Part shown: positions 32,655-41,886 of the stretch, one piece after another
Layout: every line of letters begins with the position of its first letter
Numbering within the stretch: position 1 is the first letter of the stretch
Assembly: GCA_029261675.1 (NCBI GenBank)
Contig: JAJDBA010000173.1
Span: forward strand, 1-48,151
Direction: 5' to 3'
Length of the DNA: 48,151 bases
Origin: Nitrospinaceae bacterium
Lineage (GTDB): Bacteria > Nitrospinota > Nitrospinia > Nitrospinales > VA-1
The notes under the pieces: model-generated
The model's input: only the letters and a program-made list of their open reading frames with translations
Told to the model about the DNA's origin: nothing
Database searches by the model: none
Program-made: the position numbers and the translations under genes

Positions 32655-33884
32655 ATGCGGAAGGTAATTAATATGCATGATCCATTAAAACTTTTATTGA
32701 TTGATGATGATGCCATAGATCGGAAAATGTTTAAAAAGTATTTAAAGGCATTTCCTGAGGATGGTTTTTCGATTTTAGAATTTGAAACTGGGGAAGCGGG
32801 CCTGGAATACTGTAGTCGGCAAAAACCAGATTGCATGTTGCTTGATTATAGTTTGCCCGACCTGAATGGCTTGGAATTTCTTTCTCAACTGGAAAACACT
32901 TCCTTTCCCATTCTTATGTTGACGGGACAAGGTGATGAAACGATTGCTGTTGAGGCAATGAAATTGGGGGTGCAGGACTATCTTGTGAAAGATAACATTA
33001 CCCCTACCTATTTAATGAGCGCAATTAATAATGCCATTAAAATCAGTAAATCTGAGAAGCAACGGAAACACGCAGAAGAAGCGCTTATTCTAGCCAATGA
33101 TAGATTAGAAAATCGTGTTAAGGAGCGAACTTCTCGTTTAGAAGAGACTAACAAGAAATTGGTGGCCGCTAAAGAATTGGCAGAATCAGCAAATAGTGCC
33201 AAAAGTATTTTTCTTTCCAAAATGAGTCATGAATTACGTACTCCTATACATGCCATTTTAGGATTCACACAACTTTTACAAATGGATACAAAAAATCCTC
33301 TAGCCGACTACCAACAAGAAAATATGGAAAGCGTTTATTCGGCGGGTAACCATCTCTTAGACCTGATCAATGAAGTGCTCGATCTTTCGAAGATTGAAAC
33401 GGGAAACTTTCAATTGTCTATCGATAGGGTAGATATTATTCCCATTGTGGATAACGTGATATCTATTTCTCAATCACTTGCGAATGAAAAAGGTATATCC
33501 TTGAAGTATGAGGAAATTCCGCGTGAAAGTTGTTTTGTTGAAATAGATGCTATGCGATTCAAGCAAGCTGTCTTGAACCTGATTTCAAATGCAATCAAAT
33601 ACAACAAGCCCACTGGCTCTGTGCTTATTTCTTTTAAAAGGCAAGAGATTGGTAGGTTACGTATTGGAGTGCAAGATACTGGCTACGGAATTTCCGAAGA
33701 TAAGCAGGATAAAATATTTCAACCCTTTGAGCGCTTAGGTGAGGAAACAGGAACAATTGAAGGGGCAGGTATTGGGCTTACGATATCAAAACAATTTATA
33801 GAAGCAATGGGTGGAACGATCGGCTTTGAAAGTGTTTACCAAGAGGGCAGCCTTTTTTATATTGATGTTCCTGTTTCCGAATAA
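32655..33884 (+). CDS. REC-histidine kinase fusion (kinase array member 1)
   Basis: REC 'LLLIDDDAID...MLLDYSLPDLNGLEFL...ILMLTGQGD...DYLVKD'. H-box '[26 protein letters not shown]'; N-box '[14 protein letters not shown]'; G-boxes 'DTGYGI' and '[12 protein letters not shown]'. ATG 32673 after GGAAGG is an alternative start. Confidence 0.9.
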   Translation: MRKVINMHDPLKLLLIDDDAIDRKMFKKYLKAFPEDGFSILEFETGEAGLEYCSRQKPDCMLLDYSLPDLNGLEFLSQLENTSFPILMLTGQGDETIAVEAMKLGVQDYLVKDNITPTYLMSAINNAIKISKSEKQRKHAEEALILANDRLENRVKERTSRLEETNKKLVAAKELAESANSAKSIFLSKMSHELRTPIHAILGFTQLLQMDTKNPLADYQQENMESVYSAGNHLLDLINEVLDLSKIETGNFQLSIDRVDIIPIVDNVISISQSLANEKGISLKYEEIPRESCFVEIDAMRFKQAVLNLISNAIKYNKPTGSVLISFKRQEIGRLRIGVQDTGYGISEDKQDKIFQPFERLGEETGTIEGAGIGLTISKQFIEAMGGTIGFESVYQEGSLFYIDVPVSE

Positions 33885-33926
33885 AAACTATAAAATGCCT
33901 TAGTTTGTCTACAGAATTTATATTGA

Positions 33927-38629: not shown

Positions 38630-41600
38630 AAGAGAGATTAAACAGTTTCAGCAACGATAAGCTTGGTTCTGGAAATTTTGTGCTATTGGTAGGGTCTTTT
38701 ATTTCCATTGTGTTGTTATTTTTAATGGGTTCCTGGGTATTAAAAAATATTGAAAAGGAAATAAAATCAGGTTTAGCGGATCAGTTGCAAGTATCCCTCC
38801 AATCCAACATAGAGACCTTGAATATATGGGCCCAGCAGGAAATTCAAGCCGTCAATTTTTGGGCCAATGAACCTCGTATTCGTGAAAAAATATTCAATCT
38901 GAAGAAAACATTCAATGAGAGCAATCAGAATATAGATGTCTTACAAACCTCCCCAGATATGCTTGGTTTACGCGAAATTCTGAGACCGGTAAGCCAAGAG
39001 CATGAGCATATTGGTTTTGTTGTCATAGACCCCAAGGGAAATCAAATCGCTGCTCTTTTGGATGAGCCTGTGGGGAAAATACAAGTGAGTCTCCATTCTG
39101 ATTTTGTAAGTCAGGCGCTTAAAGGGAAGCCGATCATATCTCTTCCTTTTAAGGCAGTAGTTAAACTGCCGGATGCCAAGAACGTTTTTAAAGATGGGCA
39201 ATCTACCATGTTTAGCGCCGCCCCTGTTCGTGATGATGATGGAAATGTTATCGCGGTGTTGTCTTTTAGGATCAAACCTTGGCTTGATTTCACTCGTGTG
39301 ATGCAGATTGCCCGAGCGGGAGATACTGGCGAAACCTATGCCTTTAATCGTAAAGGGAAAATGATTTCTAAAAGCCGTTTTTTAGATAGTCTAAAAACAG
39401 TTGGCCTTCTCCCTAATGTACCTGATGCCCAGTCAATTCTCAATGTTGACATTCGTGATCCTCAAGGGAATCTATTGGATGGATATCGCCCGTCTGTTCC
39501 GCGCGAACAACAACCTTTGACTCTAATGGCGAAAAGCGCCCTTTCCGGCGAGTCGGGTTACCATGTAGATGGGTATAACGATTATCGAGGCGTGCCTGTA
39601 GTAGGGGCTTGGGCATGGCTGGGTGAATATGGATTTGGAATCGCCACAGAAATGGATGTTAGTGAAGCTTTGCGGCCTTTGAACAACCTTCGTAAATTTT
39701 TTCTTCTGCTATTTGCTCTACTTGTAACGATGACGGCAGTTTATTGGTTCAAGCGATTTTGGGAATTGAAAAAGGATGCCGAATTTAAAATATTGGAGGT
39801 AAAAAAAAGAACCTCCGACATTCGAGTCAAGACAATATTGGAAAATGTGTTGGACGGCATAATTACCATTACCCCTTTTGGGATTGTAGAGACTTACAAC
39901 CCGGGAGCAGAAAGAATATTTGGATACTCTTCAGAGGAAGTCGTTGGTGAGAATGTATCTATGCTCATGCCGTCACCTTATGCAGAAGAGCACGATGGAT
40001 ATCTGGAAAAATATTTCCGTACCGGAAAATCGACAATAATTGGTGTCGTTCGGGAAGTGGTTGGAAGACGCAAGGATGGAACAGAGTTTCCTATGGATCT
40101 AGGGATAAGTGTAACAAATTTGGAACACGAACAATTTGTTACCGGGGTCGTTCGAGATATTTCTGAGCGTAAGCTGATCGAAGAAAGGCTTCAAAATAAA
40201 GCCAATTATATCAAAATGCTTCATTCGGTTGCCATTGCCGCAAACGAGTCTAACAGCTTTGAAGAGGCTATGAAAACTTGTTTAGAGAGCATATGTAAAC
40301 TCACTCATTGGCCGGTGGGGCATTTATACCTGGCTGAAAGGGATCGTGCTGAACCGCTCCTTTCCACCGACTTATGGTATATGGATGATCCTGACCGCTT
40401 TCAAACCTTCAAAGATATTACGGAAAAGGTGAACCTTAATATAGGTGAAGGGCTGCCGGGGCGTGTTTGCGAGAGTCGCGAACCGTTATGGATAGAAGAT
40501 GTGACTCGCGATTCAAATTTTTCGCGAGCAAAAATGGCTGAGGATATTGGCGTAAAAGGAGCTTTTGCTTTTCCGGTGATGATAAAAGGTTCAGTGGTAG
40601 CTGTCCTTGAGTTTTACTCTGCAAGCCCGGCTAATCTTGATTTACGTCTTTTGGATATAATGAAAAATATAGGCCTGCAAACGGGCCGACTGATTGAGCG
40701 TTGGGAAAATGAAGCGAATTTAAAAGAGAGCAAAATTTCTGCAGAAAATGCCAACCGGGCCAAATCTGAATTCTTGGCGCGAATGAGTCATGAACTACGT
40801 ACTCCTATGAACTCTATTTTAGGGTTCACGCAACTTTTACAAATGGATAAAAAAGCTCCCCTAGCCGATTACCAGCAAGCGAATATAGAAAATGTCTTAT
40901 CAGCAGGTAGTCATCTCTTGATGCTTATTGATGAAGTGCTGGATCTTTCGAAAATTGAATCTGGCAATATAAAATTGTCCACAGAACGGGTTGATATCGT
41001 TCTCATTGTGGATAATGTAGTTTCTATTTCGCAGTCACTTGCGAATGAAATGAACATATCTCTGAGGTACGAAGCAATTTCGACAAAGAGTTGTTTTGTT
41101 GAGGTCGATCCGCTTCGATTTAAACAGATTGTTTTGAACTTGATTTCCAATGCAATCAAATACAATAAACCTAGAGGGTCTGTGATTGTTTCTTTTAAAG
41201 AACAGGATGATGGCAGGATGCGTTTAGGGATAAAGGATACAGGGAATGGAATTCCTGAAGACAAGCAAGGCAGACTCTTTAAACCTTTTGAACGCTTGGA
41301 TATAAAGGCTGAGAAGATTGAAGGGACTGGTATTGGCTTGACCATATCGAAACAGCTCATAGAGTTGATGGGAGGAACCATAGGCTTCGAAAGTGTTTAT
41401 GGCGAAGGCAGTGTTTTTTATATTGATGTTCCTGTTTCAGATAAAGCACCTGTGCCATTAGAGATTGAATCACCTTCGGACTCTTCTTTCGCTTCTTCGA
41501 TCATTGATGGTAAAAAGCAAGTTTTGTACATTGAAGATATTCCTGCAAACGTGGAGTTGGTGAATCAAATTTTGGTGAGCAGACCGCATATAGAATTATT

Positions 41601-41886
41601 ATCGGCACCCAATGCTTTAGATGGTATCAAAATAGCTGAGATCCACATCCCTGATTTGATTTTAATGGATATTCATTTGCCAGGGATGGATGGTCTTACA
41701 GCTTTTAAAAAGCTTCAAGCTCTCAATGTGACTAAAGACATTCCGATTATTGCTTTGACAGCAGATGCGATGGATGGGGATATAAAAAGAGCCCTGGATA
41801 TGGGATTCAATTCCTACATCACTAAGCCAATTAATGTACCTAAGTTTTTGAAGGAAGTAGATAAAGTTTTAGCACCGAGCGTCTGA
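38626..41886 (+). CDS. Periplasmic Cache-like / FixL-type PAS / GAF hybrid histidine kinase (array member 4)
   Basis: The start overlaps the previous stop (ATGA). TM1 '[22 protein letters not shown]', then a periplasmic region of about 330 aa with Cache-like '[33 protein letters not shown]', then TM2. PAS '[44 protein letters not shown]'. GAF; H-box '[26 protein letters not shown]'; REC. Confidence 0.9.
39829..40173 (+). other. FixL-like (putatively haem-b-binding) PAS domain inside kinase 38626..41886
   Basis: Strong resemblance to my recollection of the Sinorhizobium meliloti FixL haem-PAS: '[52 protein letters not shown]...FFTGFIRDLTERE'. Candidate proximal His = His456 (CAC 39991-39993). 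Confidence 0.65.
41599..41808 (+). repeat. Near-identical 210-bp receiver-module repeat, copy 3
   Basis: 7 mismatches/210 nt against copy 1, all at what appear to be third codon positions or conservative changes. In frame within the REC domain of kinase 38626..41886. Confidence 0.9.

Follow-up and report, generated by a model that had tools for sequence, protein, structure and literature searches.

Four tandem histidine kinases of a Nitrospinaceae bacterium share related transmitters, carry unrelated sensors and, in three of them, a receiver tract homogenised by gene conversion

Four consecutive histidine kinase genes, here designated HK1 to HK4, were analyzed on the 48,151-nucleotide contig JAJDBA010000173.1 (C173) of an uncultured marine Nitrospinaceae bacterium; this whole contig is referred to below as the window. 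It belongs to a fragmented metagenome-assembled genome (MAG) of 3.2 Mb in 351 contigs, which is 81% complete. The transmitters of the four kinases fall into one clade, their sensors are non-homologous and common to kinases of other clades, and the array is therefore read, from its sequence, as a tandem paralog expansion with sensor shuffling. A 222-nt tract in the receivers of HK2, HK3 and HK4 was homogenised by gene conversion after speciation, with an HK4-type sequence as the donor. In the reading of the locus as a whole, to which a probability of roughly 0.6 was assigned, tandem hybrid kinases would have been added to a conserved module, with their signals merged on an HD-GYP phosphodiesterase.

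The list of open reading frames (ORFs) and the Pfam matches placed the four kinase genes exactly where the original prediction had located them (Table 1). By domains and motifs, all four are assigned to the HisKA-type (class I) histidine kinases. The HisKA domain matched PF00512 with E values from 6e-19 to 3e-18, with SHELRTP aligned in each of the four proteins, and the HATPase_c domain matched PF02518 (E from 4e-26 to 7e-24), with DTGxGI, FxPFER and GxGIGL found in 4/4. The H, N, G1, F and G2 boxes were intact across the alignment of HK1 to HK4, and the best sequence matches in the PDB were histidine kinases, including 7z8n and HK853.

The C-terminal receivers of HK2 to HK4 matched PF00072 (E from 2e-23 to 7e-22), and their acidic pocket, phospho-accepting Asp, Thr and Lys (in TKP) were intact. 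HK1 has an N-terminal receiver only and no C-terminal one. The N-terminal modules named in the original prediction were all found, but the C-terminal receivers of HK2 to HK4 had been overlooked. In HK4, the match to dCache_1 was weak and below the Pfam cut-off; the PAS domain of the same protein matched the haem domain of FixL (1D06) with an E value of 9e-31.

The 240-residue cores, comprising the dimerization and phosphotransfer (DHp) and catalytic (CA) domains, were 68–73% identical pairwise among HK1 to HK4, versus 25–39% identity to two other kinases within the window. This agrees with the earlier claim of a highly similar core shared by four consecutive genes. The motifs quoted for that core were essentially right, with the corrections that HK1 reads SIFL and not SEFL, HK2 has DLSTVESG and HK4 has KKAPLA. 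The similarity starts about 20 residues N-terminal of the phospho-accepting His, where the DHp helix begins.

Upstream of this point, no similarity among the sensor regions of the four proteins was detectable by BLASTP, and the N-terminal receiver of HK1 was just 26% identical to the C-terminal receiver of HK3, so that the N-termini are unrelated, as had been proposed. The idea that HK3 is a truncated copy of HK4 was rejected, as BLASTP detected no similarity between the GAF domains of the two. In this genome, the nearest paralog of every sensor module was located on a kinase from another transmitter clade. For HK2, these were C197 for MHYT (49% identity) and C57 for the Cys-rich PAS domain (64%); for the GAF domain of HK3, C224, C202 and C66 (45–49%); and for HK4, C90 and C337 for the Cache-like domain (38–40%), C344 and C16 for PAS (51–52%), and C161 and C344 for GAF (43–47%).

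A hidden Markov model of the core recovered 52 HisKA kinases from the genome, 14 with a C-terminal receiver and 3 with an N-terminal receiver only. In the tree of all 52, HK1 to HK4 were placed within a nine-member clade with support of 100/100. The other five members, encoded on contigs C328, C158 (two), C232 and C341, combine the same transmitter-receiver chassis with other sensors (PAS, a periplasmic binding-protein-like domain, HAMP-type linkers and GAF). The presence of four of the nine clade members within 9.2 kb of a 3.2-Mb genome with 52 HisKA kinases is far beyond chance, and the array is part of a larger lineage-specific family expansion. As a separate observation, the paralog at C341:11728-13704 (minus strand) stops about 30 residues into its receiver ('...ELQAKY*'), and it is either a truncated hybrid kinase or the product of a frameshift.

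A REC-kinase encoded elsewhere in the window, at 4987-6123, had originally been counted as a fifth member of the array. It does have the REC-kinase layout, but its core was only 47–52% identical to those of HK1 to HK4, and its receiver was 29% identical to that of HK1. It fell outside the nine-member clade and also outside the 32-row family clade of the second tree described below. Its membership was rejected on the basis of core identity and both trees; the five paralogs on the other contigs are closer to HK1–HK4 than this kinase is.

The second tree was built from 39 family cores from this genome and seven relatives. In it, HK1 to HK4 formed one clade (92/85) together with two orthologs from the relative G011 and two REC-kinase orthologs, so that the transmitter cores of the array and their orthologs were each other's closest relatives. 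Ortholog pairing was clear for HK3 (100/98), HK4 (100/99) and HK1 with its orthologs (99/94). The receivers of HK2 to HK4 and of the G011 orthologs were 69–80% identical to one another, versus 49–61% to other receivers of the family; therefore, the duplication covered DHp, CA and REC together.

Trees from separate domains gave a different position for HK1. With the DHp columns, HK1 and its orthologs formed a clade of their own (99/98), and a dCache kinase of the relative G014 was placed with HK3 (96/89). With the CA columns, HK1 grouped with the HK4 pair (94/89), and in several segments its CA domain was 40–64% identical to those of the REC-kinase orthologs. In approximately unbiased (AU) tests, ordinary orthology of HK1 was not rejected on the CA columns (p 0.28), and for the DHp columns a grouping of HK1 with HK4 was only marginally rejected (p 0.04). 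A mosaic origin of HK1, with a DHp domain from the REC-kinase lineage and a CA domain from the HK4 lineage, is thus possible; with an indecisive AU test, this is a lead only.

The search for relatives of the array covered thirty genomes from the same genus, family and order, and three loci were retrieved. The first (G001:C5) contained an NtrC-type activator, the REC-REC-HD-GYP regulator (72% identical) and the REC-kinase (70%), followed by an unrelated convergent gene; neither MCP, CheA and CheW genes nor hybrid kinases were found at this locus. The second (G014:C190) contained the activator, a methyl-accepting chemotaxis protein (MCP), the HD-GYP regulator (69%), the REC-kinase (65%) and, last, a single dCache kinase that lacks a receiver. 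Here the MCP gene directly adjoins the HD-GYP gene, and CheA and CheW are absent at the locus. In the third, contig C5 of G011 starts inside the HK3 ortholog, which is followed by the HK4 ortholog, with the same 4-bp overlap between the two genes as in the window, and then by the window's own downstream genes.

Behind the conserved pair, the number of hybrid kinases was thus zero in G001 and at least two in G011, with one kinase carrying an unrelated sensor in G014. Because they differ among the three loci, the chemosensory genes and the hybrid kinases were regarded as variable additions. The conserved unit consists of the activator, the HD-GYP regulator and the REC-kinase; the last two of these genes are older than the hybrid additions and are kept across species of the genus.

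The G014 kinase shows a same-type chassis in the slot behind the REC-kinase, with yet another sensor that is unrelated to those of the array. A borrowing of the HK4 sensor by this kinase was considered and rejected, as the two sensors are unrelated. Beyond its HK3-like DHp domain (96/89), the G014 protein (G014:C190 4454-6751, minus strand) has a CA domain that falls at a different position in the tree.

HK3 was 84% identical to its G011 ortholog over the whole length, with a ratio of non-synonymous to synonymous divergence (dN/dS) of 0.14, and HK4 was 79% identical to its ortholog (dN/dS 0.19). Purifying selection acts on both kinases over their entire length. The HK3 ortholog (G011:C5 18-2003) carries a single in-frame TAG in the CA domain, attributable either to recent inactivation or to a sequencing error. 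No ortholog of HK2 was found in the 30 relatives (best sensor match 45–46%) or in a metagenome scan with HK2, in which only transmitter-level matches of at most 63% were obtained. A scan of a public genome collection with the HD-GYP protein returned only generic regulators with at most 46% identity and was uninformative on synteny.

The birth-and-shuffle evolution suggested in the original prediction was supported by these results, namely the array clade, the location of the sensor paralogs on other transmitter clades, and a kinase number and type that vary among sister species. In this lineage, a DHp-CA-REC transmitter was duplicated in tandem behind an older two-gene unit, giving HK2, HK3 and HK4. 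Each transmitter copy was joined, at the junction near the phospho-accepting His, to sensors found on unrelated kinases of the genome.

The receivers of HK2 to HK4 showed a second kind of relationship. In sliding windows along the codon alignment, a receiver segment was 90–98% identical in DNA among the three genes, versus 63–84% in the remaining transmitter. Within a tract of 222 nt, the three genes differed mutually by 4.5–7.7%, compared with 26–29% in the DHp-CA core (Fisher p 1e-10 to 7e-17). The corresponding values for the two G011 paralogs were 28.4% in the tract and 26.7% in the core, and those for HK3 and its own G011 ortholog were 24.8% and 14.3%, respectively. All three tracts were about 16% different from the G011 ortholog of HK4 and 24–26% different from the G011 ortholog of HK3. 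Synonymous divergence (dS) in the tract was 0.19–0.27 among HK2 to HK4, and in the core it was 1.2–1.6 between paralogs and 0.5–0.65 between orthologs. As the tracts are nearest to the G011 HK4 ortholog and their dS is low, HK4-type sequence was copied into HK2 and HK3 after the species split. No report of a receiver tract homogenised by gene conversion in kinases was found in the literature searched.

Strong purifying selection on the receiver protein, or an artefact of MAG assembly, was weighed as a different cause of the near-identity. Receiver domains are generally conserved and the genome is a fragmented MAG, both of which would fit. However, selection alone is unable to explain the synonymous identity of a tract whose dS lies so far below that of the adjacent core, the G011 paralogs are 28% apart in the same tract, and HK3 is further from its ortholog in the tract than in the core. 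Collapse of the copies into one during assembly is unlikely because they still differ at 10–17 sites. This explanation is largely refuted and retains almost no probability.

The position of the array behind the regulator gene is summarized in Table 1. The intervals between the HD-GYP gene, HK1, HK2, HK3 and HK4 are, in order, 29, 42, 89 and −4 bp, and no terminator-like site was found on the plus strand in the intergenic spaces of the array. The start/stop coupling of HK3 and HK4 noted originally was confirmed, the two genes sharing ATGA at 38626-38629. The promoter-like site, the HD-GYP gene and HK1 to HK4 form one compact co-directional string and are predicted to be an operon. Three opposite-strand ORFs inside these genes (40911-41381, 37648-37914 and 31353-31685) had no family match and were rejected as spurious.

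Table 1. Positions of the kinase array, its conversion tracts and neighboring genes in the window
Feature	Position	Strand	Domains and length	Basis or remark
NtrC-type sigma-54 activator	23606..24979	+	REC-AAA-HTH	Pfam; upstream of the HD-GYP/REC-kinase pair also in G001 and G014
Soluble PAS-MCP	25549-27567	+		Pfam
CheA with globin insert	27658-30270	+		Pfam
CheW	30306-30734	+		Pfam
Sigma-54-type -24/-12 promoter-like element TGGCAGGCATATTGC	31035..31049	+		One mismatch to TGGCAC-N5-TTGC; consensus match only
REC-REC-HD-GYP regulator	31105..32625	+	2x Response_reg + HD_5/HD	Pfam; first gene of the predicted operon
HK1	32655..33884	+	REC-HisKA-HATPase_c, 409 aa	Pfam; partner gene kept with the HD-GYP regulator
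HK2 (hybrid kinase)	33927..36572	+	3x MHYT, Cys-rich PAS, HisKA-HATPase_c, REC, 881 aa	Pfam
HK3 (hybrid kinase)	36662..38629	+	GAF, HisKA-HATPase_c, REC, 655 aa	Pfam
HK4 (hybrid kinase)	38626..41886	+	Transmembrane/Cache-like, FixL-like PAS, GAF, HisKA-HATPase_c, REC, 1086 aa	Pfam
Conversion tract in HK2 receiver	36273..36494	+		10/222 nt differ from HK4 tract; core 208/726 (Fisher p 7e-17)
Conversion tract in HK3 receiver	38336..38557	+		16/222 nt differ from HK2, 17/222 nt from HK4, 55/222 nt from own G011 ortholog
Conversion tract in HK4 receiver	41596..41817	+		Probable donor type
REC-kinase, supposed fifth member	4987..6123	+		Outside the family

The promoter-like element TGGCAGGCATATTGC is followed by a ribosome-binding site and an ATG at 31105. 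In G001, the orthologous HD-GYP gene is preceded, at a distance of about 150 bp, by a perfect sigma-54-type element, and in G014 the sole sigma-54-type match was located upstream of the MCP gene. In the regulator itself, HDVGK and HHEKWDGSGYP are intact; in the first receiver, EE replaces the acidic pair (atypical), and the second receiver is canonical. The protein is probably the cyclic di-GMP (c-di-GMP) phosphodiesterase through which the system acts. Among the upstream genes, the chemosensory cluster contains CheA, CheW and MCP but, by Pfam, no CheY, CheB or CheR. For the globin-bearing CheA, no ortholog spanning the globin part was found in the same genus; only G025, of the same order, gave matches, starting from residue 116.

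Association with HD-GYP regulators extends beyond this locus. In this genome, contigs C90, C232 and C328 carry family kinases immediately adjacent to REC-HD-GYP genes, and the same pairing occurred at no fewer than 11 places in relatives; pairing of a hybrid kinase with REC-HD-GYP seems characteristic of the order. On these three contigs and in many relatives, hybrid kinases stand beside single-receiver REC-HD-GYP genes with no histidine phosphotransfer (Hpt) gene between them. Members of the wider family often occur as tandem pairs or triplets in the order as well.

In the proposed mechanism, the hybrids would sense different cues, HK2 through MHYT and the Cys-rich PAS domain, HK3 through GAF, and HK4 through a periplasmic Cache-like domain, a FixL-like haem PAS domain (probably for O2) and GAF. 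Each hybrid kinase would phosphorylate its own receiver, and the signals would merge on the HD-GYP c-di-GMP phosphodiesterase, perhaps also on the HK1 receiver and the NtrC-type activator. Phosphate could reach the regulator either by direct transfer from DHp, in which case the kinase's own receiver would be a competitor or a regulatory site, or by a relay via an Hpt protein encoded elsewhere (C210, C47 or C336) or via the P1 domain of CheA. By analogy with RpfC and RpfG, we infer that the kinases control the HD-GYP phosphodiesterase, and multi-input control of c-di-GMP hydrolysis appears likely.

HK1 was assigned a separate role. DHp positions H+7, H+8, H+11 and H+12 were considered, which we take from work on PhoQ and EnvZ to be specificity positions. 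At H+7, His was found in HK1 and its orthologs and Asn in all hybrids. Because of this distinct conserved His, and because HK1 is the sole kinase conserved with the regulator and the activator, it was read as the kinase that would be dedicated to the module. Its receiver would then be the entry point for CheA or for a relay, and by analogy with the phosphorylation of CheS3 by CheA3 it is likely an input port.

The original prediction had further assumed one downstream specificity for all four kinases. This was not shown: HK1 differs at H+7 and forms its own DHp clade, and in the hybrids their own receivers come first in the phosphate path, in a cluster that encodes no Hpt besides CheA P1.

Several observations weigh against the proposed expansion and merging of signals. 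The support of the array clade (92/85) is moderate, and in the genome-only tree the inside of the nine-member clade is an unresolved nine-way polytomy. No match to the Hpt family PF01627 was found in HK1 to HK4, the sole Hpt in the window being CheA P1, and none of the three stand-alone or REC-fused Hpt candidates in the genome (C210, C47 and C336) is linked to the array. The residues at H+7, H+8, H+11 and H+12 of the hybrids, N-[AS]-G-F, are common to nearly the whole wider family and are uninformative on the partner of the array. Receiver helix alpha-1, on which specificity usually depends most, is not part of the conversion tract and varies among HK2 to HK4. Gene conversion can also be a neutral by-product of similar tandem sequence; homogenisation of the receivers is compatible with a shared partner without proving one.

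Small Hpt ORFs were present in most relatives that have the family, none of them linked to the array. In this genome, the region C47:18623-24121 holds the C47 candidate, a weak Hpt-like small ORF, directly upstream of two CxxCH-rich, multihaem cytochrome-like proteins of 800 and 922 aa.

The four kinases might instead be functionally independent, in which case their adjacency would mark only the site of duplication, each would have or acquire its own partner, and receiver homogenisation would be neutral. Kinases that arise by family expansion often end up as orphans, and their domains and expression tend to change (Alm et al., PMC1630713); HK1 has a distinct DHp clade and signature, the alpha-1 helix varies as described above, and the in-frame TAG in the G011 ortholog of HK3 suggests dispensability there. 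On the other hand, the genes follow each other closely after a single sigma-54 promoter-like site, the HK3/HK4 overlap of 4 bp is present in two species, the family is repeatedly paired with REC-HD-GYP genes, and in G014 the slot behind the same pair has been filled independently by another family kinase. Independence is therefore considered unlikely, although it deserves serious weight.

It was also considered that the hybrids act mainly as phosphate sinks or phosphatases through their receivers, draining a pathway driven by CheA or HK1, with the sensors tuning the drainage. The chemosensory cluster, which has CheA, CheW and MCP but lacks CheY, CheB and CheR, would suit such a role, and the three receivers are nearly identical around the phospho-accepting Asp, as expected for a common donor such as CheA P1; receiver domains also modulate the phosphate level of CheA3 and CheS3 (PMC3868531). 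However, the catalytic motifs of the kinases are intact under purifying selection, which would be needless in a pure sink, and G011 has orthologs of HK3 and HK4 but none of the globin-bearing CheA. A sink function is thus very improbable.

A bolder version of the proposed merging of signals is a gas/redox integrator, in which the globin-bearing CheA and the three hybrids would trade phosphate with one shared partner. CheA P1 was named as the possible partner because CheY and any other Hpt are absent from the cluster. The partner would set both receivers of the HD-GYP protein and the state of HK1, and selection would maintain receiver conversion, keeping the docking surface uniform. This integrator is a speculative proposal with a low probability of being correct.

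Expansion of kinase families with shuffling of domains, to which hybrid kinases are particularly prone, has been described across genomes including Desulfovibrio (Alm, Huang and Arkin 2006, PMC1630713). As in those expansions, recent paralogs of the array share the kinase domain, their upstream sensors are swapped, and close relatives differ. In contrast to them, four members stand here in tandem in a predicted operon that also encodes a response regulator, the receiver of one copy is N-terminal and not C-terminal, and a receiver tract is homogenised.

In Xanthomonas campestris, the rpfGHC operon has the regulator gene first, and in the RpfC/RpfG system phosphorylation of the receiver is thought to activate the phosphodiesterase (PMC3749722). 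The locus studied here likewise combines hybrid sensor kinases and a REC-HD-GYP protein in one predicted operon with the regulator first, and the HD and GYP motifs are intact. However, RpfC has a C-terminal Hpt domain, whereas HK2 to HK4 end after the receiver. In addition, two receivers are present in the regulator here, the four kinases carry other sensors, DSF-type input is lacking, and the organism belongs to a different phylum.

Convergence of several kinases on one output is known from Vibrio, where LuxN, LuxQ and CqsS act through LuxU on LuxO in a multikinase network. In Pseudomonas, several hybrid kinases with different sensors share one output in the GacS/RetS/LadS and HptB systems (PMC5992135, PMC8175716). 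Receivers of phylogenetically close hybrid kinases are interchangeable, and related hybrids share partners (Ortet et al., PMC8175716). The kinases of the Pseudomonas and Vibrio networks are scattered over the genome and are not recent tandem copies, unlike those of the array; their shared Hpt or regulator has been demonstrated, whereas in the array, with no linked Hpt, a shared partner is deduced.

In the Che3 system of Rhodospirillum centenum, CheA3 phosphorylates the receiver of the REC-kinase CheS3, and CheS3, not CheA, drives CheY3 (PMC3868531). The window resembles it in having MCP, CheA and CheW genes next to HK1, a kinase with an N-terminal receiver. The output here would be an HD-GYP enzyme and not CheY, and the REC-kinase of sister species occurs at its locus without CheA and CheW. 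With regard to direct transfer from DHp to the regulator, the orphan hybrid kinase SgmT of Myxococcus is a partner of DigR (PMC3509222).

Two further observations concern neighboring genes. A UvrD/AddA-like helicase-nuclease is split into two ORFs, at 6140-7810 and 8072-9508 of the window (both on the minus strand), which are 262 bp apart. The split gene adjoins an AddB-like PD-(D/E)XK gene at 9508-12156 and may reflect a frameshift, a pseudogene or an assembly error. Downstream of the array, the gene at 43864-45873 (plus strand) encodes a protein of 669 aa with two universal stress protein domains and three PCP_red repeats, which resemble the protochlorophyllide-reductase 57-kD subunit. This combination is unusual, and the gene is kept downstream of the array in G011.

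Overall, the locus is a well-resolved new example of a known mode of evolution, family expansion with domain shuffling, and would not surprise a specialist. What it adds to the precedents is that sister species preserve intermediates and that the gene conversion in the receiver could be dated. Growth of a sensor repertoire is visible in living relatives, from a regulator/kinase pair to one, two and three added kinases. The apparent sensor-swap junction, about 20 residues before the phospho-accepting His, is useful for the engineering of chimeric kinases, and concerted evolution of receivers among paralogous kinases bears on whether pathways stay connected or become insulated. For the organism, the locus points to c-di-GMP turnover under combined control by O2, nitric oxide (NO) or redox state. 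None of these points alters current concepts.

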